This document shows, piece by piece, positions 1 through 21,022 of a stretch of DNA of 23,469 nt. The notes under the pieces are model-generated. The model had not been told where the DNA came from. It searched no databases and saw only the letters and a program-made list of their open reading frames with translations. A program made the translations under genes and the position numbers. Source of the stretch: a virus. The number at the start of each line of letters is the position of its first letter. The stretch's first letter is position 1. The stretch lies in UHGV virus genome UHGV-0341897; one strand, written 5' to 3'.

Positions 1-156
1 CAGGTCAACATGCCAGCCGCCACCAACACCACCTGGATGACATGTGGCGATCCCTGTGATTCCGCACTGCGTATCTGGGGCGACACCGTTGTCGAGTGTG
101 TGCTTAACAAACTCTGCCCGTCGCATACCTACGTAATTTTTAAATATCCGGAGTAA
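1..156 (+). CDS. 3' end of an upstream phage tail/baseplate-region gene (partial, 5' end outside window)
   Basis: Frame 1 is open from position 1 to TAA at 154-156 (ends ...[13 protein letters not shown]) and sits immediately upstream of the tail-fibre ORF. Function inferred from position only. Confidence 0.35.
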
Positions 157-159
157 TCC

Positions 160-744
160 ATGCATCGTATAGACACGAAAACCGCGCAGAAGGATAAGTT
201 CGGCGCGGGTAAGAACGGTTTTACCCGTGGTAACCCCCAGACCGGCACACCTGCCACCGATCTGGATGATGACTACTTTGACATGTTGCAGGAGGAACTT
301 TGCAGTGTTGTGGAGGCATCCGGTGCCAGCCTGGAGAAGGGGCGGCATGACCAGCTGCTTACAGCGCTTCGTGCGCTGCTGTTAAGCCGCAAGAATCCGT
401 TTGGCGATATCAAATCGGATGGCACGGTGAAAACGGCTCTCGAAAACCTTGGTTTGGGAGAAGGTGCTAACTGGGTTATGTTACCTGGAGGAATGATAAT
501 TCAGCGTGTTTATCTTGGATTTCCTATTGGCACTAATGTAAGACATATAACTTTCCCCCGGTCGTTTACAACAACGAACTATTCCATCTCAATTAACTGG
601 AATGATATCGGTACTGTAACAACTGAAACACAATCACCAGCAAATGTGGCGGTTGTTCATCAAACAAAATCATTAACAGGGGCCAGCATCTGGCAGGCAG
701 GTCCCGGGGGATTTAATGTGGACATTATAGCGGTGGGGTATTGA
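160..744 (+). CDS. stfP: Side tail fibre protein, variable segment (StfP-like)
   Basis: 194-aa ORF starting [21 protein letters not shown]..., followed directly by a tail-fibre assembly gene. Resemblance to e14 StfP is recalled from memory, not searched. Confidence 0.65.
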
Positions 745-745
745 T

Positions 746-1174
746 ATGTACGTATGGAGCGCTAAAGCAAATGGCTTTTTCCCCATATCGGAGAAAGAAA
801 AATTTGAGGCATCAGGTCTGTGGCCTGATGATGGTGTAATAGTCAGTGAGGAAGAACATAAAAAGTTATTTATGGATATTCCACCAGGAAAACAGATTGG
901 AACACTGAATGGAAAACCAGCACTGATAGATATTCCTCAGCCGACCAAAAAGGAATTAATAGCTATTGCTGAAGTTAAAAAATCCCAATTACGGGAAAAG
1001 GCTGACAGTGAAATATCCTGGCGTCAGGATGCTGTTGATGCTGATATCGCAACTGATGAAGAAGCTACAACTCTCACCCAATGGAAGAAATACCGTGTGC
1101 TGCTGATGCGTGTTGATACGTCAACAGCACCCGATATTGAATGGCCTACGCCTCCGGCAGTTCAGGCCAGATGA
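746..1174 (+). CDS. tfaP: Tail fibre assembly protein (TfaP-like)
   Basis: 142-aa ORF starting 2 bp after stf, with the Tfa-type C-terminal motif DTSTAPDIEWP. Its 3' end overlaps the convergent tfa gene by 29 bp. Confidence 0.7.
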   Translation: MYVWSAKANGFFPISEKEKFEASGLWPDDGVIVSEEEHKKLFMDIPPGKQIGTLNGKPALIDIPQPTKKELIAIAEVKKSQLREKADSEISWRQDAVDADIATDEEATTLTQWKKYRVLLMRVDTSTAPDIEWPTPPAVQAR

Positions 1175-1739
1175 CATCCGGCGCGGTGCTGGTATCTGTT
1201 GCCGTCACCGCGTCAATGTAATCCAGCACGGCGTTAAGTCGGGTTGTTTCTGCCTGAGTCAGTTTCCGTCCGGCCTGTAATTTCAGCTGAATCAGACTAA
1301 TGGAAGCCATTGCTGCATCAATCAGTGACTGGCGCTGTGCTTCTGCCGCGTCTACTGCGGCACTGTGTTGTGCCTCAGTGTCTGTCACCCATTTCTCACC
1401 ATCCCATTTATCGTATGGCGTTAACGGTGAAAGCGTGACATAACCGTCTTTGATGGCACCGATATAATCCACTGTAACAGCTGCACCATTTTCGATTGAG
1501 TAAACAGTCTCATTGCGATGGTCTTCCTCATGGCTCCATCCCTTACCTGTAAATACCGTCACTCTTCCCAGAATGTTTTCGCCCGGGTCAATACCAGTTG
1601 AACAGGCGGGCATACTTACGCCAGTATTAATATATTCATCAGACCAGCCCGTATACTCAGATGTTTCAGCATCATAATAAAAACAACGCATATCGCCCGG
1701 CACTGTAGCCAGCCCATTTTCATCAAAAACAGGTTTCAT
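1146..1739 (-). CDS. tfaE: Tail fibre assembly protein (TfaE-like), convergent partner
   Basis: 197-aa ORF with the conserved Tfa C-terminal motif TDTSTAPDVIWP. It lies directly downstream of a fibre C-terminal segment on the minus strand. Confidence 0.75.
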   Translation of the reverse strand: MKPVFDENGLATVPGDMRCFYYDAETSEYTGWSDEYINTGVSMPACSTGIDPGENILGRVTVFTGKGWSHEEDHRNETVYSIENGAAVTVDYIGAIKDGYVTLSPLTPYDKWDGEKWVTDTEAQHSAAVDAAEAQRQSLIDAAMASISLIQLKLQAGRKLTQAETTRLNAVLDYIDAVTATDTSTAPDVIWPELPEA

Positions 1740-2221
1740 TATTTAGCCCTCACCAGAAAGTTAAATGCAATATTTCGCGGTCTGACAGCAACAAAATTCA
1801 CACCATCACCCACAGAGTTACTGGTGAAATTAAATCGTGAAAATCCTGGCTGATTTCCGGCGATGCCATCATGAAAGTTAATTGCGTGTCCCGCACCTTC
1901 GCCTATATTCCCGGCAAACTGAGAAAAGTTTGTAGCTGCCTGCCAGCTTAATAATTCGCGACCACCATCTGCACCTCGCCCGTCATCCCAGACACGAATG
2001 AAATCACCGCGTGCGTCAGGTAATGCCAACGCCGGAAACACTTTCGCCAGCACAGGGTAATCAGTGGCAGAAAATTTCGCCCCGTTGAACTTCAAAAACA
2101 CCATACTGGACCAGCTGTCGATTACAGTATTTGGCATTGCAGCGGACGCCCAGAAGAACGGAACGCCAATAGCTGGAGCACCTTCTCCCAAACTGCGATG
2201 GCTCACTGCTGATATGTGCAA
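1739..2221 (-). pseudogene. stfE: Side tail fibre C-terminal variable segment (StfE-like), without an N-terminal constant region
   Basis: 160-aa ORF ending ...RNIAFNFLVRAK, a Gly/Asn-rich fibre-tip sequence. The ORF track start is a TTG and no full-length fibre N-terminus lies upstream. This is the alternative module of an invertible-type cassette. Confidence 0.6.
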
Positions 2222-2415
2222 TCGACGGGGAGTTCAGGATCAAGCGATATCGGACTCATCCTCAACACCACCTGATTAATTTGGAGAGCGGGAGAAGGGA
2301 GATGCTACCAGTAGATGATGACGGTTACGGTTCTGCTCCCGCGATATTCGGGGTGATTACTTACATCATTAATGATGCGAGGAACGCGGAGTTTGATGAT
2401 TGTCCGGTGATGTAA

Positions 2416-3084
2416 TCATATTGGCGTTATTAGTTCGGCGCCCTGATTTTTCACATTCCCGACGGCACGCGTTACGGCGTGCCATATAAATTTATCAGCC
2501 GGTACAACACCGTCGGCTGCAATTTCCGCTGCTTCTTTCCCTCCAACATCCTGCCTCATCCATTCACGCGCGGCTTCCGGTAGCAGTACCAGTGGTCGTC
2601 TGTCGTGAATATCAACCAGTCCTTTGTCAGCTGCAGCTGTAACTATCAGGAAACCTTCTGCTTCATCTCCACGTTCGAATGGTGTGCTGCCGATCGCCGC
2701 CATAAAAATCGGCTGACCGTCTGCCCGGTGAATAAAGTAGGGTTGTTTTTGGTCGCCTTCCTTTTTCCACTCATACCATCCATCAGCAAAGCAAATTGCG
2801 CGGCCATGCTGCCAGAGTGGTTTAAACATTCTGCTGGTGGCAGCAGTTTCAGACCGTGCATTAATGAGCGGCGGTTTATCCCACCAACCGGGGGCGTATC
2901 CCCAGATAACTGGATCAAGATGCAACTGCTCATCACGTTCGCTCAGAAGCAGAACTTTTGTTCCTGGCGCTACGTTGAATCTTCCGATGGGTTCTGGATC
3001 GTATGGAATATCGCGTTCTGATTCATCAGCGAGAAGGGCAAGATAATCTTCACGGGTCATTGACTGTGAAAAGCGTCCACACAT
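2416..3084 (-). CDS. yedK: SOS-response-associated peptidase (SRAP; YedK/HMCES family, abasic-site processing)
   Basis: 222-aa ORF starting MCGRFSQ (the catalytic Cys2 signature of SRAP proteins), the same length as E. coli YedK. A GGAGG Shine-Dalgarno sits about 7 nt upstream of the ATG. Confidence 0.85.
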   Translation of the reverse strand: MCGRFSQSMTREDYLALLADESERDIPYDPEPIGRFNVAPGTKVLLLSERDEQLHLDPVIWGYAPGWWDKPPLINARSETAATSRMFKPLWQHGRAICFADGWYEWKKEGDQKQPYFIHRADGQPIFMAAIGSTPFERGDEAEGFLIVTAAADKGLVDIHDRRPLVLLPEAAREWMRQDVGGKEAAEIAADGVVPADKFIWHAVTRAVGNVKNQGAELITPI

Positions 3085-3318
3085 AGAAACCTCCAGCCGT
3101 ATGTCAGACTGAAAGTATAGGGCAGTTAGAAAAAGTGGTGCACACCGTTAAAGATTTAAAAGGAGCATGTAAGGTAAATCGGAATGATGGTTTTGTGAAT
3201 TGATGAATTCCGAAAGTGAAAAAGATACTTAATCATTGTGTGCTAGCGATACGGGGGCAACATTTGACGGGGTTTTTCCCCTGTAATTCCCCATTGCTTC
3301 CCCGTTCAGAAAACAGGC

Positions 3319-3349
3319 AAAAAAACCAGCCGTAACAGGCTGGTTCTTC
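3319..3349 (-). terminator. Rho-independent terminator immediately 3' of the tRNA-like fragment
   Basis: Minus strand reads AACCAGCC-tgttac-GGCTGGTT followed by TTTTTTT. Confidence 0.5.
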
Positions 3350-3358
3350 GAGGATTTT

Positions 3359-3410
3359 TGGTCAGCACGAGAGGATTTGAACCTCCGCCCCCGACACCCC
3401 ATAGCGGTGA
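3359..3410 (-). other. tRNA-Pro-like 3' half (T-arm, acceptor 3' strand and CCA; no 5' acceptor strand) - probable att-site remnant
   Basis: Minus strand reads ...CACCGCTATGGGGTGTCGGGGGCGGAGGTTCAAATCCTCTCGTGCTGACCA. It has a GGTTCAAATCC T-loop and terminal CCA and resembles E. coli proL as recalled from memory. No complementary 5' acceptor strand (CAGCACG) is found upstream. Confidence 0.5.
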
Positions 3411-3598
3411 TCTACCTTCTCATCAAGGGTAACCATGTGCCAGAAGCAGCCCTTGCGCACATTGGATGGGTATCAAATAATGAAGTAGGTCAACTTTATT
3501 AAATAAAATTGTGTTGGTTCAGATGATCGAATGGGAATGAATAGTTTATTACTTTTGGTGACCGCAAGCGCGATCACCTTCGATTTGGTGGCAATTAC

Positions 3599-4567
3599 CT
3601 AGAATGATGCACAATCTTTAAGCTCTTTTTCTAGTTGTTCAACCAAGTCACAGCATTTTTTGATAACATCTTTAACTGACTCTGAATCTAACTTATGAAA
3701 ATTACCATTTTTTGTTTTACCTGCTCGATGAACTAAGTCATGCCTAATTAACACGCTTTTATAAACTTCTGTGAAAACAGGGAATTTAATACCAAAGGTA
3801 TCTCGATACATGCCACTTACTTTTGGCAGATTATGATAAAGAACACTCTTCATAGACTCTATCGCTTGAGACTCTATTTGTTCATGCCTTATAAATAATT
3901 CAGAAAGTAAGAATTTTTCTGTATTGTAATCTTTGAAGGTTTCAACAAAATTTCTCAAATTAGTTTGGCTACCATGAATTAGGGAAATAAATCTGTCACA
4001 TAAATATGTTTCCAAGGAAGTTATTGTATTGGCATATAGCATATACGACATTTGTATTTGTAAAGTGCTATCAATTTTTAACTGAGCATCATTTAGTTTT
4101 ATGGCGTTCTGCATACTATTTTGGAATGTCATATAGACATCTCGTTCAGATAGCGTTCGATCATCAGAGTACTGCATATCAATAACATCTAGAATGCGCT
4201 GTTCAATTAATGAAGGTCTATTCAACTGTAATATATCTATAGTCGCATGTCCTCGCTCAGTTAAACCTTCTAAATATCCATTTTTATTTTGTTTTATATG
4301 TTCTGAAAAACTTTCATTTAAAGGATTTAGAAGTAATGGTTTGCCATTTTCATCGAGAGGAAACTGATCTTTTTTAATCATGCTACATGCCTTACAAGCG
4401 ATGAGCAGGTTGTCTGTAGCATCTTGGAAGTCAGTATACTTTGATTTTGGGAAAAAACGATCAACATCCGCCATCAATGGTTCATAAAGTTTAGTGCCAC
4501 AGTAAGCACATTGATGCTTAAACTTCTCCCATAGTTCAAGTTTAAACGTTTTATAATTCTTATTCAT
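3599..4567 (-). CDS. Orphan HNH-like zinc-finger nuclease-domain protein with a C-terminal helical domain carrying an Rx4HxR (HEPN-like) motif; candidate defence or restriction protein
   Basis: 322-aa ORF in a very AT-rich island. N-terminus has C-A-Y-C ... V-D-R-F-F-P ... D-N-L-L-I-A-C-K-A-C-S-M-I-K-K, an HNH/His-Me finger pattern with Arg where the catalytic His is expected. C-terminus has LIRHDLVHRAG. AAGGAA Shine-Dalgarno lies 8 nt upstream of the ATG. Confidence 0.75.
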   Translation of the reverse strand: MNKNYKTFKLELWEKFKHQCAYCGTKLYEPLMADVDRFFPKSKYTDFQDATDNLLIACKACSMIKKDQFPLDENGKPLLLNPLNESFSEHIKQNKNGYLEGLTERGHATIDILQLNRPSLIEQRILDVIDMQYSDDRTLSERDVYMTFQNSMQNAIKLNDAQLKIDSTLQIQMSYMLYANTITSLETYLCDRFISLIHGSQTNLRNFVETFKDYNTEKFLLSELFIRHEQIESQAIESMKSVLYHNLPKVSGMYRDTFGIKFPVFTEVYKSVLIRHDLVHRAGKTKNGNFHKLDSESVKDVIKKCCDLVEQLEKELKDCASF

Positions 4568-4640
4568 TGAATAGTTCCTTTATATTCTTGACTTGATTGT
4601 TTGTTTGCCAATTTAAGCCAAAGACACACGACTTTAATTG

Positions 4641-4676
4641 GGCTTGAATCATAGTTATATGTAATCTATTAAGCAA
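4641..4676 (-). promoter_or_regulatory. Putative sigma-70 promoter for the HNH-like gene
   Basis: Minus strand reads TTGCTT, a 17-nt spacer, then TATGAT, about 75 nt upstream of the ATG. Sequence-only prediction. Confidence 0.3.
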
Positions 4677-5011
4677 ACACTTTTCATTAATAGCATGAGA
4701 TAACGCTCAATTCTTTATTTTCCGGGAGTGTGTAACTTCATATCCACCTCTCACTCACAGCGTACGTTATTGGCGAAAAATTTAGTTAAGCCATTGATAG
4801 TTTGTGAAAACACGCATGATTTAAAATCCCTTTGCCGTGAAGGGGCTGATAGGTACAGGCACTTGTTTTTGCCCTCTAAAACGGTTATCAAAACCAAAAA
4901 ACATACATTGATAATCAATAGGTTAGGGGAAAGATAAAAGCCAGTTGATTTACAATAAAATTATAGGATTATTTTTATTTATCATGCGGTTGTATATGAA
5001 CCATCTAACTA

Positions 5012-5176
5012 CTGCTGCGCCATATGGGCTGGACTGAAGCCGCAGACCTGATTGTTAAAGGTATGGAAGGCGCAATCAACGCGAAGACCGTAACCTATGA
5101 CTTCGAACGTCTGATGGAAGGCGCTAAACTGCTGAAATGTTCAGAGTTTGGTGACGCGATCATCAAGAACATGTAA
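5012..5176 (+). pseudogene. icd: Isocitrate dehydrogenase 3'-terminal 165-bp segment (icdC-like att homology), not joined to an icd body
   Basis: Translation [54 protein letters not shown] matches the Icd C-terminus. An in-frame TAA lies immediately upstream, and the DNA further upstream is AT-rich and unrelated. Confidence 0.85.
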
Positions 5177-5199
5177 TCTCTACATGTGTTAAATATTGA

Positions 5200-5230
5200 A
5201 ACGGGCGTATAACACGCCCGTTGTTTTATG
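5200..5230 (+). terminator. Rho-independent terminator after the icd 3' segment
   Basis: Perfect 9-bp stem AACGGGCGT / ACGCCCGTT with loop ATAAC, followed by TTGTTTTAT. Confidence 0.65.
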
Positions 5231-5242
5231 ATGATGTAAAAT

Positions 5243-5279
5243 CTTCCCCAAAACTTTCCCCAAAACCCTTCCCCAAAAC
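5243..5279 (+). repeat. Three tandem 12-bp direct repeats (C/T)TTCCCCAAAAC between the att homology and int; candidate integrase arm-type binding sites
   Basis: Direct reading gives cttccccaaaac, tttccccaaaac, c, cttccccaaaac. An imperfect inverted copy (gttaggggaaag) lies near 4922-4935 on the other side of the icd segment. Confidence 0.55.
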
Positions 5280-5289
5280 TGGCTATTTT

Positions 5290-6432
5290 CTATGCTGTTT
5301 TGATATCTACGATAATCCAGTCTTTACCACGATCATCATTGTATCGGTCGGTCATTTTTCTGGATTTATGGCCTAACAACTTTTGCGTATCCAGACCCTG
5401 TTCCCGATATAACCGTTCTGACAGAGATCGCTGCTCATGAAATGTGGGCGCAGTTCCTTGCTCCCATTTTATGCCACATTTTTCCCTGGCCTTTTTAAAA
5501 GCCGTTGTCAGAGTATTCGCAGAAACCTGGTCTCCTCTGTTTGCTTGAGAGGTTGTGTGACGGTAATGGACCAGATATTTACTAACAACAGCATCCCTGC
5601 ACTGAGATATAACTTCACGAAGGGTAATATTCAGAGCATCGCATTTCAGGTTAAGCGGAATAGCAAGTTTTGAACCGGTTTTTTCCTGAGTAATGTGCAA
5701 CATGTCGTCCCAGATATCAGAGAATTTCAAATTGCAGATATCGCCTAAACGTTGTCCAGTGACAAGAGCAAGTAGCATCCCACATTTTAAATAGGGCTGC
5801 CGTCTGCTTACGCTGTCAAATATTGCCTGCCATTCGGGCAGTGATAATCTTTGGCGGTTTACTCGATTTCGCGGTTGTTTTGTTGCCTGCGCTGGGTTAA
5901 ATCCTGGCGGAACATGTCCTGCGTGTTGTGCTTCTTTGAAGACGTCGATTAACACCATTCTCACGACTTGCGCCATCCTGTTATGACCTTCAGCCTTTAC
6001 AGCATCAATTATTTCGGCAATATCAAGTGCGGTAATATCCTTGAGGTGTTGCATTCCACAATGCTCACGGAAAAGACGAATGGGTTTGCCTTTTTGCCGA
6101 TAGGAGTTGGGTCTTAGTTCATTATGTTGCAGCCTGTCCTCCTGGATAGAAATATATTTATCAAGCCATTCTGTCACCGTAATGTCTGAGCGCCTGCCTT
6201 TCATTCTTTCCAGACGCTCATTGACGCTTAATATTTGTCGGGTACGTTGTTCAGCAATAATGATATTTGCTTCAGTAGCAACTTGTTTTGCTTCATTCTC
6301 ATCAGTTCCTAAGCTATGAAAACGACCGGATAGTGGATGTTTGTATTGCCAATATACCTTTCCGGTTCGCTTATCTAATTTGCAATATAAATTGGGTATA
6401 GAGATTTTGTGAGATCGGGGTCTAGCAGCCAT
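5290..6432 (-). CDS. int: Tyrosine recombinase, lambda-family integrase
   Basis: 380-aa ORF whose C-terminus (HEQRSLSERLY ... LLGHKS ... TDRYNDDRGKDW) parallels the lambda Int catalytic region. It is adjacent to the att homology and overlaps xis. Confidence 0.95.
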   Translation of the reverse strand: MAARPRSHKISIPNLYCKLDKRTGKVYWQYKHPLSGRFHSLGTDENEAKQVATEANIIIAEQRTRQILSVNERLERMKGRRSDITVTEWLDKYISIQEDRLQHNELRPNSYRQKGKPIRLFREHCGMQHLKDITALDIAEIIDAVKAEGHNRMAQVVRMVLIDVFKEAQHAGHVPPGFNPAQATKQPRNRVNRQRLSLPEWQAIFDSVSRRQPYLKCGMLLALVTGQRLGDICNLKFSDIWDDMLHITQEKTGSKLAIPLNLKCDALNITLREVISQCRDAVVSKYLVHYRHTTSQANRGDQVSANTLTTAFKKAREKCGIKWEQGTAPTFHEQRSLSERLYREQGLDTQKLLGHKSRKMTDRYNDDRGKDWIIVDIKTA

Positions 6433-6658
6433 CAGCGATTATCCGTTGGAGTTTTGGGTTTGCGTTTATTGGGAGTTGCGGTTCTGCAAGCGTTCCTACA
6501 AAACGGGAATTTCGGTCAATCATCCAGTAGCGACCAACTTTTATAGCGGGTGGGGCCATCATTTTCCCTTGCGCGTATTTTTTCAGAACTCGCTCACTTG
6601 GTGCTAAGTCCCCAAATTCTTCTTTAGCCCAGTCCTGTAAAGTGATTAGTCGAGACAT
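6422..6658 (-). CDS. xis: Excisionase (lambda Xis-type)
   Basis: 78-aa ORF upstream of int and overlapping it by 11 bp. Starts MSRLITLQDWAKEE, similar to lambda Xis MYLTLQEW. Confidence 0.8.
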   Translation of the reverse strand: MSRLITLQDWAKEEFGDLAPSERVLKKYAQGKMMAPPAIKVGRYWMIDRNSRFVGTLAEPQLPINANPKLQRIIADGC

Positions 6659-6797
6659 TTGTCCTCCTCTTAGCTGCTGAGGGAGTTTGTGACCGATATA
6701 TCTGACATGATATTAAGCTCATGGCAGGTACATCTCTTGACTGGTCATAGAGATAAATTTAATGCTGAGAAATGCAGTATTGAATTTATCAATTTTT

Positions 6798-7037
6798 CTA
6801 TTTCCTGCGTATGGCACGTAACTTCTTAATGTGTTCTGCCGTTTCGATCTCTTCTGCTATCCGATCTGCATCAGCTTTATTCACAGGTTCAAAGTCATGA
6901 TTAAAGCGGAACATGCTGGCGATACATGTTCTGCCTTTTCGGATGTAGTGAACTTTGTTGTGGGTAGAACGCAGGATTTTGCAGGGAGTGCCGTGGTGGT
7001 CGACGTACCAGGTGTTAGGAAAAATGATTCTGAACAT
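6798..7037 (-). CDS. Hypothetical early-left (b2/ea-region) protein
   Basis: 79-aa ORF co-oriented with the int-to-exo gene string. No family recognised. Confidence 0.45.
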   Translation of the reverse strand: MFRIIFPNTWYVDHHGTPCKILRSTHNKVHYIRKGRTCIASMFRFNHDFEPVNKADADRIAEEIETAEHIKKLRAIRRK

Positions 7038-7084
7038 TTTTACACCTCAGTTGGACGATGTTGAAATTTGCTGCTTTGAGGCCA

Positions 7085-7303
7085 TCACAGTCCCCATTGT
7101 TTGTTCTTAAGTTCGATCTCCTCCTGGCAACTTGCACAAGTCCGACAACCCTGAACGGCCAGGCGTCTTCGTTCATCTATCGGATCGCCACACTCACAAC
7201 AATGAGTGGCAGATATAGCCTGGTGGTTCAGGCGGCGCATTTTTATTGCTGTGTTGCGCTGTAATTCTTCAATTTCTGATGCTGAATCAATGATGTCTGC
7301 CAT
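7085..7303 (-). CDS. DksA/TraR-family C4 zinc-finger protein
   Basis: 72-aa ORF with C-C-E-C ... C-R-T-C-A-S-C spacing typical of TraR/DksA-type zinc fingers common in lambdoid early regions. Confidence 0.65.
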   Translation of the reverse strand: MADIIDSASEIEELQRNTAIKMRRLNHQAISATHCCECGDPIDERRRLAVQGCRTCASCQEEIELKNKQWGL

Positions 7304-7353
7304 CTTTCATTAATCCCTGAATTGTTGGTTAATACGCTTGAGGGTGAATGCGA

Positions 7354-7379
7354 ATAATAAAAAAGGAGCCTGTAGCTCC
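7354..7379 (-). terminator. Rho-independent terminator downstream of the 93-aa ORF
   Basis: Minus strand reads GGAGC-tacag-GCTCC followed by TTTTTTATTATT. Confidence 0.5.
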
Positions 7380-7401
7380 ATGATGATTTTGTTTTTCATG
7401 T

Positions 7402-7683
7402 TCACCGTTCCTTAAAGACGCCGTTTAACATGCCGATCGCCAGGCTTAAATGAGTCGGTGTGAATCCCATCAGCGTTACCGTTTCGCGGTGCTTCTTCAG
7501 TACGCTACGGCAAATGTCATCGACGTTTTTATCCGGAAACTGCTGTCTGGCTTTTTTGATTTCATAATTAGCCTGACGGGCAATACTGCGAAGGGCGTTT
7601 TCTTGCTGAGGTGTCATTGAACAAGTCCCATGTCGGCAAGCATAAGCACACAGAATATGAAGCCCGCTGCCAGAAAAATGCAT
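7402..7683 (-). CDS. Hypothetical early-left protein (possibly starting at internal Met23)
   Basis: 93-aa ORF in the gene string between exo and xis. No family recognised. Confidence 0.45.
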   Translation of the reverse strand: MHFSGSGLHILCAYACRHGTCSMTPQQENALRSIARQANYEIKKARQQFPDKNVDDICRSVLKKHRETVTLMGFTPTHLSLAIGMLNGVFKER

Positions 7684-7693
7684 TCAGTGGTTG

Positions 7694-7885
7694 TCATACC
7701 TGGTCTCTCTCATCTGCTTCTGCTTTCGCCACCATCATTTCCAGCTTTTGTGAAAGGGATGTGGCTAACGTATGAAATTCTTCGTCTGTTTCTACTGGTA
7801 TTGGCACAAACCTGACTCCAATTTGAGCGAGGCTATGTGCCATCTCGATACTCGTTCTTAACTCAACGGGAGATGCTTTGTGCAT
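7694..7885 (-). CDS. Hypothetical early-left protein
   Basis: 63-aa acidic ORF co-oriented with the operon. Confidence 0.4.
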   Translation of the reverse strand: MHKASPVELRTSIEMAHSLAQIGVRFVPIPVETDEEFHTLATSLSQKLEMMVAKAEADERDQV

Positions 7886-8046
7886 ACAGCCCCTCGTTTA
7901 TTATTTATCTCCTCAGCCAGCCGCTGGGCTTTCAGTGGATTTTGGATAACAGAAAGGCCGGGAAATACCCAGCCTCGCTTTGTAACGGAGTAGACGAAAG
8001 TGATCGCGCCTACCCGGATATTATCGTGAGGATGCGTCATCGCCAT
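7858..8046 (-). CDS. Hypothetical early-left protein
   Basis: 62-aa ORF immediately downstream of exo in the same orientation, overlapping its neighbours. Confidence 0.35.
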
Positions 8047-8717
8047 TGCTCCCCAAATACAAAACCAATTTCAGCCAGTGCCTCGTCCATTTTTTCGATG
8101 AACTCCGGCACCATCTCGTCAAAACTCGCCATGTACTTTTCATCCCGCTCAACCACGACATAATGCAGTCCTTCACGCTTCATACGCGGGTCATAGTTGG
8201 CAAAGTACCAGGCATCTTTTCGCGTCACCCACATGCTGTACTGCACCTGGGCCATGTAAGCCGACTTTATGGCCTCGAAACCACCGAGCCGGAACTTCAT
8301 GAAATCCCGGGAGGTAAACGGGCATTTCAGCTCAAGGCCATTGCCGTCACTGCATAAACCATCGGGAGAGCAGGCGGTGCGCATACTTTCGTCGCGATAG
8401 ATGATCGGGGATTCAGTAACATTCACGCCGGAAGTGAATTCAAACAGGGTTCTGGCGTCGTTCTCGTACTGTTTTCCCCAGGCCAGCGCCTTAGCATTAA
8501 CTTCCGGAGCCACACCGGTGCAAACCTCAGCCAGCAGGGTGTGGAAGTAGGACATTTTCATGTCAGGCCACTTCTTTCCTGAGCGGGGCTTTGCTATCAC
8601 GTTGTGAACTTCTGAAGCGGTGATGACGCCGAGCCGTAATTTGTGCCATGCATCATCCCCCTGTTCGACAGCTCTCACGTCGATCCCGGTACGCTGCAGG
8701 ATAATGTCCGGTATCAT
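8037..8717 (-). CDS. exo: Lambda exonuclease (Red-alpha)
   Basis: 226-aa [42 protein letters not shown]..., essentially the lambda Exo sequence as I recall it. Its start overlaps the bet stop (ATGA). Confidence 0.97.
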
Positions 8718-9499
8718 GCTGCCGCCTTCTGCTCAGTGGCTTTCTGTTTCAGGAATCCAAGAGCTTTCACTGCTTCGGCCTGTGTCAGTTCTGACGATGC
8801 GCGAATGTCGCGGCGAAATATCTGGGAACAGAGCGGCAATAAGTCGTCATCCCATGTTTTATCCAGGGCGATCAGCAGAGTGTTAATCTCCTGCATGGTT
8901 TCATCGTTAACCGGAGTGATGTCGCGTTCTGGCTGACGTTCTGCAGTGTATGCAGTATTTTCGACAATGCGCTCGGCTTCATCCTTGTCATAGATACCAG
9001 CAAATCCGAAGGCGAGACGGGCACACTGAATCATGGCTTTATGCCGTAACATCCGTTTGGGATGCGACTGCCACGGGCCGGTGATTTCTCTGCCTTCGCG
9101 GGTTTTGAATGGTTCGCGGCGGCATTCATCCATCCACTCGGTAACGCAGATCGGATGATTACGGTCCTTGCGGTAAATCCGGCATGTACAGGATTCATTG
9201 TCCTGCTCAAAGTCCATGCCATCAAACTGCTGGTTTTCATTGATGATGCGGGACCAGCCATCAACGCCCACCACCGGAACGATGCCGTTCTGCTTATCAG
9301 GGAAGGCGTAAATTTCTTTCGTCCACGGATTAAGGCCGTACTGGTTGGCGACGATCAACAATGCGATGAACTGCGCATCGCTGGCATCGCCTTTAAATGC
9401 TGTCTGGCGAAGAGTGGTGATCAGTTCCTGTGGGTCGACAGAATCCATGCCGACACGTTCAGCCAGCTTCCCTGCCAGCGTTGCGAGTGCTGTACTCAT
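8714..9499 (-). CDS. bet: Lambda Bet single-strand annealing protein (Red-beta)
   Basis: 261-aa [62 protein letters not shown]..., matching lambda Bet from memory. Confidence 0.97.
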
Positions 9500-9504
9500 C
9501 CGTT

Positions 9505-9801
9505 TTATACCTCTGAATCAATATCAACCTGATGGTGAGCAATGGTTTCAACCATGTACCGGATGTGTTCTGCCATGCGCTCCTGAAACTCAACATCGTC
9601 ATCAAACGCACGGGTAATGGCTTTTTTGCTGGCCCCGTGGCGTTGCAAATGATCGATGCAGAGTGATTCAAACAGGTGCTGGGACAGACCCTTTTCCATG
9701 TCGTCTGCCAGTTCTGCCTCTTTCTCTTCACGGGCGATCTGCTGGTAGTGACGTGCCCAGCTCTGAGCCTCAAGACGATCCTGAATGTAATAAGCGTTCA
9801 T
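9505..9801 (-). CDS. gam: Gam, RecBCD inhibitor (98-aa GamS-length form)
   Basis: [42 protein letters not shown]... matches lambda GamS. An in-frame TAA lies 19 codons upstream of the ATG, so no GamL-type extension is possible. Confidence 0.95.
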
Positions 9802-9876
9802 GGCTGAACTCCTGAAAATGGCTGTGAAAATATCGCCCGCGAAATGCCCGGCTGATTAGGAAAACAGGAAAGGGGA

Positions 9877-10287
9877 TTAGTGATTGAGGCCGTTACCGCG
9901 TCCGTCGAGAAAAACTTCCACGAGCAAATCACGGGTATAAGTGCGCTCGATGCCGCGATGCAGATAAAGCCGTCCGCGTAAATTAGCTGATGCAGTCCAG
10001 GTACCATCTTTGTGTTTGACCAGCATTCCTGGCATGACCGCACCTCGATTAACGGTCTGCGTTCCGTAATGTTGATGAACCATAAAAACTCCTGCCCGTA
10101 AGCTGGGCTGCTGAACATATAGAGACTTCTGCGCGTATTCAGGCGGTGGATGGCCGCCGGTTGTCATAACTAAGCCGCCTCGTTGAAGCGACTGAGGTAT
10201 GAGGTGTTGAGTTGATTTCAGCTGGTCACACCGACGTTCACGCGTCCGCTTCACCCCTCGCACTCCCCGGAGCCTGCTGAAATTCAA
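9877..10287 (-). CDS. Hypothetical first gene of the leftward operon, with an arginine-rich N-terminal segment
   Basis: ORF track start is a TTG. N-terminus [10 protein letters not shown] resembles the lambda N arginine-rich motif, but the rest is unlike N. An internal ATG at 10167 would give a 96-aa product. Coding status is uncertain. Confidence 0.4.
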
Positions 10288-10353
10288 GCTGCGGATCTAA
10301 GCGGTCATCGCAACGGTGAATCAGGTGATTGCCGTATCGTTGTGTTGTTGCGA

Positions 10354-10405
10354 CATGGTGATAATAGCTATTGCTATTGACTATATCAATACTTATTGCT
10401 ATTGA
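10354..10405 (-). promoter_or_regulatory. Putative pL promoter with overlapping operator-like repeats (oL)
   Basis: Minus strand reads TTGATA, a 17-nt spacer, then TATTAT. The 17-bp inverted repeat TATTGACTATATCAATA and two copies of ATTGCTATTGA overlap it. Confidence 0.45.
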
Positions 10406-10529
10406 TTGATGTGTTTTGATATTAACTGTTTGATAGCAAAAAGAATTAATTTTGTGACTTGCATCGCATAGCGATAACTGAAGCGAGGTCGTGGTGGTTT
10501 TTTGAACGGTTTATGTGATGAGGGGAGGC

Positions 10530-10557
10530 AAAAGAAAACCCGGCACGACGGCCGGGG
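10530..10557 (-). terminator. Rho-independent terminator 3' of the 287-aa gene
   Basis: Minus strand reads CCCGGCC-gtcgt-GCCGGG followed by TTTTCTTTT, directly after the stop codon at 10561-10563. Confidence 0.55.
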
Positions 10558-10560
10558 AAA

Positions 10561-11424
10561 TCATTTCGCATCTACAATAAATAACCTGTTTATCTGGCCT
10601 TTTTTAACAGTAGCCTTTGCGGTTATAGTGAATACTGCAGATGGATCACCTTTGGTTGATATATATGCACTAAGAGCTCTAATATACGGGTTATTCTTCT
10701 TTCCTGCAGCTGGATCGCTAATTTCAGCAGTGATTCTCTTTTTTGAGTCATCACCATCTAAAATTATTTTAGCTGTCATATTTTGTGCATCAAATTCTGT
10801 AAGAAAAGCACGATACTCACGAAGACCGAGAACTTCATCATCATCAAGCCTATCAATTTCAGCTTTATCTCTCTCGTTAACTTTTAGAAGGCAGCCGTCA
10901 ACATTTGTTGCAACACTTATCTGATCGCAAGTATTACCAATAGGTGATACTGCCTGCCTTACAGAGGGGCGAAGCTCTACAGCCATTCGGTCAATCAAAG
11001 AGATCAACTTATCAATGGTTCCAGCATCCTTGTTTCCTAGTGCCTCTATGGCCTTTTCAAGTGACTGCTGCAAAGCTTTCATTTCATCTTTCTTGTTAGA
11101 ATTTCTCGCAAAAATATATTGTAGTATTGCGCCAAGTATAGTTGCGGCGATCCCCGAGAACAACTGGTTCTGAGTGGCGAAGTTAAGAACTGCTTCAAGA
11201 GTAAAGCAGTTAGCTTTTGCTTCGCGTGCGTAAACCTTAACTTCCTGATAATTAATGTATTTACTATATTTTTGTGTAACAGAGAAAGAAGCTGCTGTTG
11301 AGAGAACTTTAGAAAAACCCTTTAGGGATTCTCCTAGGCAGTTCAAATCTATTTCATGATTTAAAGCATCTTTTCCGTCATACCTAAGAGAGATTTTTAT
11401 ATCCTGTAAAGCGTCACAATCCAT
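10561..11424 (-). CDS. Uncharacterised 287-aa protein at the rexAB-equivalent position downstream of cI; candidate exclusion or abortive-infection protein
   Basis: Long AT-rich ORF 66 bp downstream of cI and co-oriented with it, ending at its own terminator before oL/pL. Contains one hydrophobic helix ([19 protein letters not shown]) followed by a charged coiled-coil-like stretch. No family recognised. Confidence 0.75.
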
Positions 11425-11490
11425 AAATCGCTCTCGTCTAATTCTAATTAAATTTACTATCCCCTAAACGACTCATCAGCACAGTACTGA

Positions 11491-12183
11491 TTATCCATGT
11501 TTCCTGTACGTCTGGGGCATGCTCCCAATAACCTTACCGAAGATGAACACCCGGTTCATCTCGTCTTTCTCGATCGGGTCCCACGGTGAGTAGCTCTTGT
11601 TATCAGAGATAACCAGCAGCTTATCCTTCATCATTTGCAGGCGCTTTACATGGGCGGTGTCGTCGTACAGAAACGCATAGATGCCATCACCGTCGAAAGA
11701 TTTAACCGTGATATCAACGAACAGAAGATCACCAGGTTCAATCGTTCCTGACATGCTGTCACCGCGTACGTTAATGATGCGGATATTTTCTGCCTTCCTA
11801 CCATCGAACATGTGACGAGCATCGTCAAACGAGTACTCAACCGAGCGTAGAACTTCTACAAACTCACGGTTGATGACTCCCGGCCCGGCACTCACTTCTA
11901 TATCAAGAACGTCAATCTTGAAGTATTTGGGATGGTTGGCAGTAGGCTTCCCTAATTGTTGACCGTCATTTCTCATCGGGCCTATGCCTGATGAGAGCCA
12001 CTCTGTTCGAACACCCAATGCATTAGCTATTTCAACAATTTTTGTTGAGCCGCGCGCGTTGCCGCTTGTCAGTCTCCAGATTGTGGGTTGAGCTACGCCA
12101 GACGCCTTTGCAAGAGCGCCTTGAGACATTCCAGATTGTTCCATCGCTAGGTTTAAGCGATCAGCAAGAGTTTCTTTTTTCAT
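11491..12183 (-). CDS. cI: Prophage repressor, cI-type (HTH-XRE plus LexA/S24-like autopeptidase domain)
   Basis: N-terminal helix-turn-helix (QGALAKASGVAQPTIWRL) and C-terminal S24 peptidase signatures (GDSM ... VKR). Start placed at the ATG for MKKETL (12183); the ORF track begins at an upstream TTG (12219). Divergent from cro. Confidence 0.9.
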   Translation of the reverse strand: MKKETLADRLNLAMEQSGMSQGALAKASGVAQPTIWRLTSGNARGSTKIVEIANALGVRTEWLSSGIGPMRNDGQQLGKPTANHPKYFKIDVLDIEVSAGPGVINREFVEVLRSVEYSFDDARHMFDGRKAENIRIINVRGDSMSGTIEPGDLLFVDITVKSFDGDGIYAFLYDDTAHVKRLQMMKDKLLVISDNKSYSPWDPIEKDEMNRVFIFGKVIGSMPQTYRKHG

Positions 12184-12293
12184 AAGTTTTAATTTATACG
12201 CTTGCGTATTGATGGTCAAAACACGTTTTGCTATTGCTGTGATTAATACGCATTGCTATTATTTATTCATTGTAATACCAATAGGAATTAATA
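12184..12293. promoter_or_regulatory. oR/pR/pRM-type divergent control region between cI and cro
   Basis: Contains the 14-bp inverted repeat ATACGCTTGCGTAT, two TTGCTATT-core repeats shared with the oL region, and a plus-strand TTGCTG, 17-nt spacer, TATTAT promoter about 30 bp upstream of cro. Confidence 0.55.
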
Positions 12294-12521
12294 ATGACAA
12301 ATCAAACCATTCAACTCGCAATCAGTATTACAGGTAGTCAAAAACGACTGGCAGATCTATGCGGTGTAGCCCAGCCCACTGTTTGGCGTTGGCTACACGG
12401 TGGCGGAATTGATGCCCGCTATGTAATGAAAATTGTCTCAGCCACTGGTGGAAAGATTAAACCAGCAGATATTCGTCCCGACCTCGCACCATTGTTTAAC
12501 GCGAGTAATTCTGCCGCCTAA
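12294..12521 (+). CDS. cro: Cro-like HTH regulator (YdaS-type)
   Basis: 75-aa ORF divergent from cI with HTH segment QKRLADLCGVAQPTVWRWL and an AGGAA Shine-Dalgarno. Confidence 0.8.
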   Translation: MTNQTIQLAISITGSQKRLADLCGVAQPTVWRWLHGGGIDARYVMKIVSATGGKIKPADIRPDLAPLFNASNSAA

Positions 12522-12545
12522 TCTGCGGCGTTAACTGATAAGGCA

Positions 12546-13091
12546 ATGACTATGCAACCACTTACATACCAACAGACTAGCGGATTTAGCCCGACTGCGG
12601 TGATAAATCGTTCTCAAACAAAACAGGCGCCAGGCCACGAAAAAATCCGTGATGCCGTTCGCGCCTGGTCGGCTGCAGATAATCAGGATGTTGTTGCCGC
12701 ACTCATTGTGAATGAGTATCGGGAGCAGGGCGGCGGCACCATCGATTTCCCTGATGATGTCAGCCGTGCACGCCAGAAGCTGTTCCGCTTCCTCGATAAC
12801 AAATTCGATTCTGAAAAATACCGAAATAACGTGCGTGAACTGACCCCGGCAATTCTGGCGGTACTACCGCTGGAATATCGCGGCCACCTGGTTGAGCAGG
12901 ATAGCTTCATGGCTCGGCTGGCTGAAATGGAAAAGGAACTCAGTGAGGCAAAACAGGCTGTCATTCTCAACGCACCACGCCACCAGAAACTGAAGGAGAT
13001 GAGTGAAGGCATTGTGTCGATGTTTCGTGTGGACCCGGATCTGGCTGGTCCACTGATGGCGATGGTCACCACCATGCTGGGGGCAATATGA
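12546..13091 (+). CDS. CII-position regulator (possibly YdaT-family)
   Basis: 181-aa ORF between cro and O. Assigned by position only; YdaT-like identity is a guess from memory. Confidence 0.5.
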   Translation: MTMQPLTYQQTSGFSPTAVINRSQTKQAPGHEKIRDAVRAWSAADNQDVVAALIVNEYREQGGGTIDFPDDVSRARQKLFRFLDNKFDSEKYRNNVRELTPAILAVLPLEYRGHLVEQDSFMARLAEMEKELSEAKQAVILNAPRHQKLKEMSEGIVSMFRVDPDLAGPLMAMVTTMLGAI

Positions 13092-13177
13092 CAGGTTCGG
13101 AAATGGCGAAAGCCGGTCTGCGCGAACAGAACCGACTTTCAGGTGCAAATCGTAACACACTCATTGCGGGAGGAATT

Positions 13178-14107
13178 ATGGCAAACACTGCTGAGATATT
13201 CAATTTTCCAGTGCCGGATGTGGCACAAAAGGAGCCGCGCGTGGCAGATCTCGATGATGGTTATACGCGCATTGCAAATGAGTTGCTGGAAGCTGTGATG
13301 CTGGCCGGATTAACACAGCACCAGCTTCTGGTCTTCCTGGCTGTCATGCGCAAAACATATGGCTTTAATAAAAAACTGGATTGGGTGAGCAACGAGCAAC
13401 TTTCCGAGTTGACCGGGATATTGCCGCACAAGTGTTCTGCTGCAAAAAGTGTTCTGATAAAGCGTGGGATTTTTATTCAGAGCGGGCGGAATATCGGCAT
13501 TAATAATGTGGTCAGTGAATGGTCAACATTACCCGAATCAGGTAAGAAAAATAAAGTTTACCTGAAAGAGGTAAATTTACCTGAATCAGGTAAGAAAAGT
13601 TTACCCAAATCAGGTAAAGACGTTTACCCGAATCAGGTAAACACAAAAGACAAACTAACAAAAGACAATATAAAACCTTTTTCGTCCGAGAATTCTGGCG
13701 AATCCTCTGACCAGCCAGAAAACGATCTTCCTGTGGTGAAACCGGATGCTGCAATTCAGAGCGGCAGCAAGTGGGGGACAGCAGAAGACCTGACCGCCGC
13801 AGAGTGGATGTTTGACATGGTGAAGACCATCGCGCCATCAGCCAGAAAACCGAATTTTGCAGGGTGGGCTAACGATATCCGCCTGATGCGTGAACGTGAC
13901 GGACGTAACCACCGCGACATGTGTGTACTGTTCCGCTGGGCATGCCAGGACAACTTCTGGTCCGGTAACGTGCTAAGTCCGGCCAAACTCCGCGACAAGT
14001 GGACCCAACTCGAAATCAACCGTAACAAGCAACAGGCTGGCGTGACAGCCGGAAAATCAAAACTCGACCTGACAAACACTGACTGGATTTATGGGGTGGA
14101 TTTATGA
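13178..14107 (+). CDS. O: Replication initiator, lambda O-like (origin-binding)
   Basis: Start at MANTAEIFNFPV with a GGGAGG Shine-Dalgarno; the ORF track extends to 13088. Has the lambda O N-terminal motif VADLDDGY, internal iterons, and a C-terminus overlapping P. Confidence 0.9.
   Translation: MANTAEIFNFPVPDVAQKEPRVADLDDGYTRIANELLEAVMLAGLTQHQLLVFLAVMRKTYGFNKKLDWVSNEQLSELTGILPHKCSAAKSVLIKRGIFIQSGRNIGINNVVSEWSTLPESGKKNKVYLKEVNLPESGKKSLPKSGKDVYPNQVNTKDKLTKDNIKPFSSENSGESSDQPENDLPVVKPDAAIQSGSKWGTAEDLTAAEWMFDMVKTIAPSARKPNFAGWANDIRLMRERDGRNHRDMCVLFRWACQDNFWSGNVLSPAKLRDKWTQLEINRNKQQAGVTAGKSKLDLTNTDWIYGVDL
13529..13641 (+). repeat. Replication origin iterons: five copies of about 19 bp (TTTACC-N7-GGTAA) inside O, followed by an AT-rich stretch
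   Basis: Direct reading gives ttacccgaatcaggtaag, tttacctgaaagaggtaaa, tttacctgaatcaggtaag, tttacccaaatcaggtaaa, tttacccgaatcaggtaaa. The AT-rich tract cacaaaagacaaactaacaaaagacaatataaaacc follows at 13642-13680. Confidence 0.8.
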
Positions 14108-14805
14108 AAAACATCGCCGCACAGATGGTTAACTTTGACCGTGAGCAGATGTGCCGGATCGCCAATAACATGCCGGAACAGTACGACGAAAAGCCGCAGG
14201 TACAGCAGGTAGCGCAGATCATCAACGGTGTGTTCAGCCAGTTACTGGCAACTTTCCCGGCGAGTCTGGCTAACCGGGACCAGAACGAACTGAACGAAAT
14301 CCGCCGCCAGTGGGTTCTGGCTTTCCGGGAAAACGGGATCACCACAATGGAACAGGTTAACGCAGGAATGCGCGTAGCCCGTCGGCAGAATCGACCATTC
14401 CTGCCATCACCCGGGCAGTTTGTTGCCTGGTGTCGGGAAGAAGCATCCGTTACCGCCGGGCTGCCAAACGCCAGCGAGCTGGTTGATATGGTTTACGAGT
14501 ATTGCCGGAAGCGTGGCCTTTATCCGGATGCAGAGTCTTATCCATGGAAATCAAACGCGCATTACTGGTTGGTTACCAACCTGTATCAGAACATGCGAGC
14601 CAATGCGCTGACTGACGCGGAATTACGGCGCAAGGCTGCCGATGAACTGACCTGTATGACAGCGCGAATTAACCGTGGTGAGGCTATACCTGAACCAGTA
14701 AAACAAATTCCTGTCATGGGCGGTAGACCTCTAAATCGTGCACAGGCTCTGGCGAAGATCGCAGAAATCAAAGCTAAGTTTGGGCTGAAAGGAGCAAGAG
14801 TATGA
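14104..14805 (+). CDS. P: Replication protein P (DnaB helicase loader), lambda-like
   Basis: 233-aa ORF MKNIAAQMVNFDREQMCRIANNMPEQYDEKPQVQQVAQIINGVFSQLL..., near-identical to lambda P as I recall it. Confidence 0.97.
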   Translation: MKNIAAQMVNFDREQMCRIANNMPEQYDEKPQVQQVAQIINGVFSQLLATFPASLANRDQNELNEIRRQWVLAFRENGITTMEQVNAGMRVARRQNRPFLPSPGQFVAWCREEASVTAGLPNASELVDMVYEYCRKRGLYPDAESYPWKSNAHYWLVTNLYQNMRANALTDAELRRKAADELTCMTARINRGEAIPEPVKQIPVMGGRPLNRAQALAKIAEIKAKFGLKGARV

Positions 14806-15104
14806 CGGGCAAAGAGGCAATTATTCATTACCTGGGGACTCATAAGAACTTCTGTGCGCAGGACGTTGCCGCGGTAACAGGCGCAACCGTAACCAGCATA
14901 AATCAGGCTGCGGCTAAAATGGCGCGGGCAGGAATCCTGGTCGTTGATGGTAAGGTCTGGCGAACGGTGTATTATCGGTTCGCTACCAGAGAAGAACGGG
15001 AAGGAAAGGTGAGCGCGAATTTGATTTTTAAGGAGTGTCGCCAGAGTGCCGCGATGAAACGGGTATTGAGGGTATATAAAAGAACATCAATGGGTACACA
15101 ATGA
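14802..15104 (+). CDS. ren: Ren (Rex-exclusion protection protein)
   Basis: 100-aa ORF MTGKEAIIHYLGTHKNFCAQDVAAVTGATVTSINQAAAKMARAG..., matching lambda/DLP12 Ren from memory. Confidence 0.9.
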   Translation: MTGKEAIIHYLGTHKNFCAQDVAAVTGATVTSINQAAAKMARAGILVVDGKVWRTVYYRFATREEREGKVSANLIFKECRQSAAMKRVLRVYKRTSMGTQ

Positions 15105-15171
15105 TGAAACAGGTGAGTTGAGTTCAAACTGTAGTACAATTCTCTCCAGTTTGAACAGGAAAGAATATGCT

Positions 15172-15504
15172 ATGAACCCTTATATTTATCTTGGTGGTGC
15201 AATACTTGCAGAGGTCATTGGTACAACCTTAATGAAGTTTTCAGAAGGTTTTACACGGTTATGGCCATCTGTTGGTACAATTATTTGTTATTGTGCATCA
15301 TTCTGGTTATTAGCTCAGACGCTGGCTTATATACCTACAGGGATTGCTTATGCTATCTGGTCAGGAGTCGGTATTGTCCTGATTAGCATACTATCATGGG
15401 GATTTTTCGGCCAACGGTTGGACCTGCCAGCCATTATAGGCATGATGTTGATTTGTGCCGGTGTGTTGGTTATTAATTTATTGTCACGAAGCACACCACA
15501 TTAA
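15172..15504 (+). CDS. emrE: Small multidrug resistance efflux transporter EmrE
   Basis: 110-aa product from Met19 of the ORF track entry (MNPYIYLGGAILAEVIGTTLMKFSEGF...), with four hydrophobic helices. Matches E. coli EmrE, known from DLP12. Confidence 0.95.
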   Translation: MNPYIYLGGAILAEVIGTTLMKFSEGFTRLWPSVGTIICYCASFWLLAQTLAYIPTGIAYAIWSGVGIVLISILSWGFFGQRLDLPAIIGMMLICAGVLVINLLSRSTPH

Positions 15505-15759
15505 AAATAATTTATTTTTAAACGACTAAAATATGGAGGTTCGTATATTTGTATGGGCCTCGTTTTATGCTTTTTGTTAATGTCTTTAGTTTTTATTCAT
15601 TCTTTTGAACTTTCAAGATTATGGTGTAAGAAAATTGCAATACGATTATTGTTGTATATTCAAGATAATGTGACCTTAATTGTCTTTTTAAATAAAAATT
15701 AAACAAAAATCATATCTCACCACTAAGGTTTATAAAAGCATACTTTAGCAGGTGTCACC

Positions 15760-17610: not shown

Positions 17611-17638
17611 AGCCCGCATAAGTGCGGGCTGCTTTTTA
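17611..17638 (+). terminator. Rho-independent terminator (plus-strand sense) abutting the esterase stop codon
   Basis: Stem AGCCCGCA-taag-TGCGGGCT followed by GCTTTTTAC. Confidence 0.45.
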
Positions 17639-21000: not shown

Positions 21001-21022
21001 TATGCAATTGTTTACTAAAAGT

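Follow-up and report, generated by a model that had tools for sequence, protein, structure and literature searches.

The window analysed here is the whole of a 23,469-nt stretch of the UHGV virus genome UHGV-0341897, and our subject is a junction within its first 6,658 nt, where tail-fibre genes, AT-rich cargo genes, a copy of the 3' end of icd, an integrase gene (int) and an excisionase gene (xis) follow one another directly. The initial annotation had described this contiguity, and an open reading frame (ORF) map, a composition profile and domain searches bore it out, placing the tail-fibre genes at 160-2221, the cargo at 2416-4567 and the icd copy at 5012-5176, ahead of int and xis. The GC fraction is 0.33 over 3501-5000, as against approximately 0.5 across the tail-fibre genes. 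The icd copy was also said to have no icd body upstream of it, and it has none, given that the reading frame over 4862-5011 is closed by five stop codons. A repeat search for a second copy of the attachment (att) site inside the window found none, and neither ARAGORN nor Rfam (at the gathering threshold) found an RNA in the window. The features of the junction itself are as follows.

4876-5012, no strand: P arm of an e14-like att site, holding a single e14-type arm motif (GGTTATCAAAAC, 4883-4894); same sequence as the left arm in the attR of E. coli fEC.1
5012-5176, plus strand: icd 3' copy, 54 codons and a stop, from its translation against K-12 Icd
5013-5022, no strand: putative strand-exchange core, TGCTGCGCCA, from an alignment of 12 att sites
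5200-5222, plus strand: icd transcription-terminator hairpin in the duplicated block, which ends at 5229
5244-5279, plus strand: three direct TTCCCCAAAAC repeats, putative P' arm-type integrase (Int) sites of a lambdoid element (3 matches against 0.67 expected by chance)
5290-6432, minus strand: lambda-family tyrosine integrase of a phage-21/NC-SV-like lambdoid element (Arm-DNA-bind_1, E=1e-28; Phage_integrase, E=8.9e-24)
6422-6658, minus strand: excisionase (Pfam Exc, E=6.7e-06; annotated as excisionase in all matching genomes)

Two prophage ends and the att site between them

When positions 1-7000 of the window were compared by megablast with 5,426 complete E. coli genomes, no genome covered the whole stretch, and the matches fell into two families, one to the left and one to the right. 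On the left, positions 1-5229 correspond to the right end of a complete prophage in E. coli fEC.1, at 99.4-99.9% identity in three collinear pieces, and thus the region left of 5012 is the end of an e14-like prophage and not a complete icd reading through into the copy. The fEC.1 prophage is approximately 42 kb long and begins after icd with an IntE-type integrase (94% identical to K-12 IntE) and xisE. Head genes of HK97 type and the genes of a contractile tail (sheath, tube, baseplate J and YmfQ) come next, and after them tail fibres, cargo and, last, an icd pseudogene of 168 nt, beyond which lies the host gene iraM. The order of K-12 e14 (ymfQ, stfP, tfaP, tfaE, stfE', pinE, mcrA, icdC, iraM) is collinear with both the window and fEC.1, and in E. 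coli 82.0311, as in fEC.1, the IntE-type integrase lies at the far end of the e14-like prophage.

Between icd and the e14-like int of fEC.1 (L004 7037-9508) there is a third icd 3' copy, 82-84% identical (L004 7944-8117), beside an integrase pseudogene. This arrangement suggests a decayed remnant of another icd-targeting element, and that arrays at this locus gather remnants as well.

On the right, positions 5013-23469 correspond to the left end of a lambdoid prophage, at 98.8% identity in strain SE15 (and many other strains) and 99.3% in Z0117EC0036; NC101, the host of prophage NC-SV, also carries it, and is 100% identical to the window over 5013-5400. In SE15 and Z0117EC0036 the full icd reads into the left end of the lambdoid prophage, and the genes that follow are int, xis, exo-bet-gam, the repressor, O/P, Q, lysis genes, and head and tail genes of lambda type, of which approximately 17 kb of early and lysis genes lie within the window. 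The SE15 prophage ends on its right with sitABCD and an icd fragment, followed by ycgX. The Int of the window is 60% identical to K-12 IntE, and 98.9-99.7% identical to the Int of the free lambda-like phages that we sampled, with 28 phage records at 95% identity or more. We connect this element to phage 21 because the paper that places prophage NC-SV in icd calls the site the phage 21 attachment site (PMC12803456); no phage 21 record was among the matches listed for this int. Both halves of the junction equal these named prophage ends at 98.8-100% identity across kilobases, which rules out chance.

To define the boundary between the halves we aligned 12 att sites, anchored at the start of the icd homology: the window, the sites of fEC.1, K-12, SE15 and 82.0311, the attL of Z0117EC0036, and the attP of the free phage 3W. 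The block common to all 12 sites corresponds to window positions 5013-5229 (217 bp), of which 164 nt are icd coding tail and the other 53 nt contain the terminator hairpin, and is 93-100% identical among the att sites of the locus. Window positions 5012-5176 translate to the last 54 residues of Icd and the stop (K-12 counterpart, MLRHMGW...IENM and stop). Three kinds of arm lie left of 5013 (icd body, e14-type P arm, lambdoid P arm) and three kinds of flank lie right of 5229 (host DNA, e14-type P' arm, lambdoid P' arm). In the window the left arm is of e14 type and identical to that of fEC.1, and also aligns to the arms of K-12 e14, 82.0311 and E. coli PEC131, while the right arm is lambdoid and identical to that of Z0117EC0036, the switch falling at 5012/5013.

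The short repeated motifs of the arms, which from their sequence and placement we infer to be arm-type integrase binding sites, divide in the same manner. In K-12 e14, two copies of GGTTATCAAAA(C) lie in the P' arm and a single copy lies in the P arm, approximately 130 nt to the left of the core; the window shows one e14-type motif, 130 nt to the left of its core, with the spacing of K-12 e14. Free phage 3W carries in its attP three copies of TTCCCCAAAAC on the P' side and one copy of TTCCCCAAAAT at 129 nt to the left of the core; of these, the TTCCCCAAAAC triplet alone is present in the window, which has no lambdoid-type left motif.

Given that the 12 sites are alike from 5013, and that the K-12 attL and attR differ from the equivalent of 5023 onward, strand exchange probably takes place within TGCTGCGCCA (5013-5022), at the left edge of the shared block. 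The single lysogens Z0117EC0036, NGF1 and NC101 carry, next to the same int, an icd copy with 100% identity to that of the window, and the window's copy is best read as the lambdoid phage's own copy, from the P' side of its attP, rather than as a displaced host icdC.

A comparable site end was observed in a Citrobacter sp. Awk 4 contig (L011, NZ_JANEWG010000080.1), where positions 684-2320 hold a homologue of the window's SOS-response-associated peptidase (SRAP) cargo gene (77%), an e14-type arm motif, an icd 3' copy at 81% identity and TTCCCCAAAAC repeats. This contig was the sole match of a looser pattern (an e14 arm motif, a gap, and two lambdoid arm motifs), and no int ORF adjoins the site. 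Judged by these motifs, similar att-end modules occur outside Escherichia.

A probable two-member prophage array at icd

Taken together, these data lead us to propose, with a probability of roughly 0.85, that window positions 1-6658 span the internal att site of a two-member prophage array at the icd integration site of E. coli. Both halves are known elsewhere as ends of independent icd-integrated elements, the left as the fEC.1 attR beside iraM and the right as the SE15 and Z0117EC0036 attL beside the full icd, and the internal site is a hybrid made of the P arm of the e14-like element, the shared core, and the P' arm of the lambdoid element. The same architecture is present in complete genomes. 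Using a junction query built so that only the hybrid junction gives 80% coverage, we found the same kind of junction, in the same order, in 4 of the 5,426 genomes (82.0311, 82.0312, PEC131 and PEC165). The 82.0311 array is fully resolved and has three icd-derived sites, its order being icd, e14-like prophage, icd', lambdoid prophage with sitABCD, icd', ycgX; PEC131 represents a second lineage with different cargo. Like the window, 82.0311 (NZ_CP122454.1) and PEC131 (NZ_CM168022.1) have e14-like tail fibres and cargo, then icd', then a lambdoid int and xis, and a single protein, WP_000741335.1, serves as the lambdoid Int in 82.0311, SE15 and Z0117EC0036. They differ from the window in their cargo and in a diverged e14-like P arm, with 90-91% identity over the 525-bp region 4876-5400.

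The reverse order (lambdoid arm, icd', e14 arm) was found with a mirror-image query in 5 genomes, 3 of them natural isolates and 2 of them near-duplicate K-12 records. We inspected one of the latter, the K-12 derivative NZ_CP174267.1 (L013, 1976-6300), in which an engineered insert containing luxR, with a lambdoid-type P arm, lies between icd and e14, and we assumed that its near-duplicate has the same insert. Across the chromosomes of the 5,426 genomes we counted 7,332 occurrences of the 217-bp block itself (median per genome 1, maximum 4). Among 60 genomes sampled at even spacing, approximately one third had two copies, corresponding to one element at icd, and 1 genome had three.

The array was probably formed by ordinary site-specific integration. 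The integrases of the two phages, both of the lambda family and 60% identical, would recombine at one core at the 5' edge of the 217-bp icd-end block; integration of the first phage would regenerate the core at both of its ends, and the second phage would then integrate into one of these recombinant sites, leaving an e14-like P arm, the core and a lambdoid P' arm in series. Int-mediated exchange is thus the presumed origin of the junction. Entry of the lambdoid phage into the attR of the e14-like prophage, or of the e14-like phage into the attL of the lambdoid prophage, would give the same internal junction, and therefore the order of arrival is not readable from the window. The initial annotation had suggested a second icd-targeting lambdoid phage inserted into the icdC-type attR of a resident e14-like element; of this proposal the adjacency holds, while the order that it assumed is not something the window displays, and the 165-nt copy is better assigned to the lambdoid phage than to a displaced host icdC. 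Given that each prophage keeps a matched pair of arms, independent excision of either one, by the Int and Xis that it encodes itself, is expected. Reportedly, e14 excises itself much better than it excises an adjacent 21 prophage.

Such an arrangement, at a well-studied integration hotspot, is rare but well understood, and has been described before both in general and for the two families of elements concerned. In tandem arrays of integrative elements the core is restored at both ends of the first element and the second enters one of them (Mageeney et al. 2020, PMC7192596). Insertion of phages 21 and e14 at the same attB is stated in the title of Wang et al. (1997, J Bacteriol 179:5705, cited in PMC7192596 and PMC12803456), and the same work is cited for a preference of each icd-targeting integrase for particular recombinant att sites along an array (Wang et al. 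1997, cited in PMC7192596). The window resembles phage 21 beside e14 in K-12, as far as those citations describe it, in having related but distinct lambda-family integrases that share one icd core, each element with its own icd 3' copy. It differs in that its e14-like member apparently belongs to a full-size lineage and is not the 15-kb remnant of K-12, in that the lambdoid element lies on the attR side, and in its e14-like cargo, an SRAP gene and an HNH nuclease gene in place of pinE and mcrA. Tandem arrays in general (PMC7192596) are the same in kind, with three related att sites, the peculiarities here being a protein-coding target and an unusually long duplicated block of 217 bp. Our current understanding of site-specific integration is therefore unchanged, and the value of the locus lies mainly in annotation: prophage callers tend to fuse such arrays or to misplace their ends, and the internal icd fragment marks the true boundary.

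Several observations weigh against this interpretation. The window stops inside both elements, so that the outer ends in the source genome, which we would expect to be a full icd on the left and a third icd copy on the right, lie outside its view. The variants within the repeat are shuffled among sites and strains and do not cleanly part phage copies from host copies, and therefore the window's own data do not fix the exchange point; indeed, in 82.0311 the copy on the host side equals that of the window at 100% identity as well. The exact junction of the HNH-side arm with int was absent from the complete E. coli genomes, and from the GTDB species representatives and JGI metagenome contigs that were searched with a gapped pattern joining a left-arm-specific 23-mer to a right-arm-specific 20-mer. 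Finally, the 217-bp block is repeated in such loci, and a short-read assembler could join the wrong arms across it. A misjoin of this kind is possible and constitutes the main residual doubt: both prophages would be present in the source, and the contig would have been closed wrongly over the icd repeat, the true order being reversed or one element being extrachromosomal. Given that the repeat is common to every att site of the locus, that the opposite order does exist in other genomes, and that the exact junction was missing from all the collections searched, such a chimera deserves consideration, but we judge it unlikely, since the same order and kind of junction occur in the complete genomes 82.0311, 82.0312, PEC131 and PEC165. 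Moreover, two icd-integrated elements must adjoin in either order, and the biological conclusion would barely be altered.

It is also conceivable that no integrase was involved, and that the junction arose by RecA-dependent homologous recombination inside the repeat, perhaps once transduction or conjugation had brought in DNA from another lysogen. A repeat of 217 bp at 93-100% identity suffices for exchange, and the shuffling of variants among sites and strains fits such events. On the other hand, the apparent exchange lies at the extreme left edge of the repeat (e14-like to 5012-5014, lambdoid from 5013), at the putative integrase core and not at some random place in the 217 bp, a point of slight weight since it depends on the true parents; we regard homologous recombination as very unlikely to be the origin of this junction. 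More improbable still is that 4876-5290 is simply the attP of a single phage that carries the tail-fibre genes, the cargo and this int, whether its genome is free, circularised or in tandem with a copy of itself. In such genomes int does lie against the end of the late genes, and the window alone has no outer ends; an unintegrated or circularised phage was among the options of the initial annotation. However, 24 sequenced free lambda-like phages that have the icd copy, int and xis (98.5-99.5%) match the window only from 5010 rightwards, and have as their own P arm a different DNA, from the sitABCD side, with the lambdoid-type motif TTCCCCAAAAT and neither HNH cargo nor these tail-fibre genes. 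Prophage NC-SV of NC101 and the free lambda-like phages 4A7, 3W, 1W, Perceval and ev017 likewise share the icd copy, the P' arm repeats, int and xis with the window at 98.5-100%, yet as single lysogens or free genomes they have icd body or their own P arm left of the core. Among phage records, none had a match to the HNH gene, to the P arm (4600-5012) or to the int junction, phage-record matches left of the core being confined to the tail-fibre segment (1-2193) and the SRAP region (approximately 2441-3392). Furthermore, the left arm motif is of e14 type and not that of the adjacent Int, the phage of the left module has its own IntE-type integrase in fEC.1 and 82.0311, and the right module runs on in SE15 into heads and tails of lambda type. 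A free genome was thus discarded, and of the tandem lysogen that had also been proposed, the tandem stands as one of two different phages, a myovirus-tailed phage with an IntE-type integrase on the left and a lambda-like siphovirus on the right, and falls as copies of a single phage.

We give equally little credence to 4876-5290 being the working attP of a recombinant phage, or to both elements being mobile as one composite. Were it so, there would exist a phage with e14/SfV-like contractile-tail genes, a lambdoid early region and a 21-type integrase, whose hybrid attP carries the P arm motif of the other integrase family; arm-site specificity between the two icd integrases would be looser than reported, and tandem arrays at icd would yield new viable mosaics.

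The tail-fibre inversion module and the cargo slot

The features left of the att site belong to the e14-like element.

1-156, plus strand: 3' end of a ymfQ-family baseplate/tail gene of an e14/SfV-like prophage, cut by the window edge (99.9% to fEC.1 L001 12001-12156, annotated YmfQ family protein)
160-744, plus strand: tail-fibre gene, StfP-like (Pfam Gp53-like_C; PHROG tail fibre)
about 437-462, inside the StfP-like gene: left Pin-type crossover site, CTCTCGAAAACCTTGGTTTGGGAGAA, read from the sequence
452-468 and 2177-2193: inverted repeat, from a repeat search
746-1174, plus strand: tail-fibre assembly gene, TfaP-like (Caudo_TAP, E=6.6e-33)
1146-1739, minus strand: alternative tail-fibre assembly gene, TfaE-like, within the invertible segment (Caudo_TAP, E=3.8e-27)
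1739-2221, minus strand: StfE'-like alternative C-terminal segment of a tail fibre, which runs to the truncated right crossover site (PHROG tail fibre, E=2.8e-49; in fEC.1 annotated as an incomplete phage tail protein)
2177-2193, no strand: half of the right Pin-type crossover site and deletion scar, from comparison with fEC.1
2416-3084, minus strand: cargo gene for an SOS-response-associated peptidase, SRAP/YedK family (Pfam SRAP, E=6.8e-51; NCBIfam PRK09951, 464 bits)
3358-3416, minus strand: 59-nt tRNA-Pro 3' fragment (90% to the chromosomal tRNA-Pro gene in every E. coli genome)
3599-4567, minus strand: cargo gene for a solitary HNH nuclease, 322 aa, AT-rich (PADLOC PtuB-like, E=1.1e-23; mREase_IV, E=2.3e-11; HNH endonuclease in fEC.1)

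Compared with fEC.1, the window is without 1,503 bp that hold the pin invertase gene, dinI and an S24 fragment, and a Pin-family invertase beside the invertible segment is accordingly absent from the window, which leaves the e14-like identity of the element unaffected. The left crossover site is intact; at the right Pin-type site the deletion sets in 1-2 nt away from the central dinucleotide. In fEC.1 the right site reads TTCTCCCAAACC/AACGTTTATGAAAA, and the window joins ...CCCAAAC to L001 position 15696, so that the TTCCCCAAAC-type half is retained as TTCTCCCAAAC (compare L001 14167-14218 and 15683-15710). With pin gone and the right crossover site truncated, the tail-fibre inversion switch is therefore frozen, and possibly the deletion itself arose by an aberrant Pin reaction.

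A second deletion relative to fEC.1, of approximately 1.05 kb, lies between two copies of a 121-bp unit (window 3284-3404), which in fEC.1 is duplicated around a 1.05-kb insert holding one hypothetical gene. ARAGORN found no complete tRNA at the tRNA-Pro fragment (3358-3416), which sits in this 121-bp unit and is probably the fossil att site of a small tRNA-Pro-targeting element within the e14-like cargo region.

That the cargo genes occupy the position of pinE and mcrA in K-12 e14, as the initial annotation had it, was confirmed when the layouts of fEC.1, 82.0311, K-12 and PEC131 were compared. The slot between the inversion module and the P arm holds pinE and mcrA in K-12; pinE, a GIY-YIG gene and an mcrA fragment in 82.0311; an acyltransferase gene and a GIY-YIG gene in PEC131; pin, dinI, the S24 fragment, SRAP, the hypothetical gene and HNH in fEC.1; and SRAP and HNH in the window. 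It thus carries a different nuclease-type gene (mcrA, GIY-YIG or PtuB-like HNH) in most of the strains examined, and is a reasonable place to seek defence genes. Residues 6-156 of the HNH protein match HNH domains of PtuB-like (PADLOC) and type IV restriction kinds; no gene for a PtuA partner lies close by, and the C-terminal 165 or so residues match only PHROGs of unknown function. The 322-aa protein has no Pfam match and no sequence relative in the PDB, and a single-sequence AlphaFold2 model had a mean pLDDT of 38 and was unusable.

Further features of the lambdoid element

At 10561-11424 (minus strand) a DUF7946+DUF7947 protein (PHROG 5147, unknown function) is encoded by an AT-rich gene next to a CI-like repressor gene (11491-12219); nowhere else does the lambdoid element lack a match in SE15. 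The same position holds an ASCH gene and a hypothetical gene in SE15, a PP2C phosphatase and a Ser/Thr kinase in 82.0311, and DUF3037 and a hypothetical gene in PEC131; it is a variable slot, located where lambda has rexAB.

Between the replication and nin regions (15118-18679) there are genes for an EmrE-like SMR transporter, a YbcK-type large serine recombinase (508 aa) and a BD-FAE alpha/beta hydrolase, and a 38-nt direct repeat (15496-15533 and 17569-17606, 84% identical) flanks the serine recombinase gene. A 380-aa ORF at 21189-22331, between Q and the lysis genes, was considered as a second integrase given that its length equals that of Int, and was rejected as such, the product being an OmpC/NmpC-type porin.

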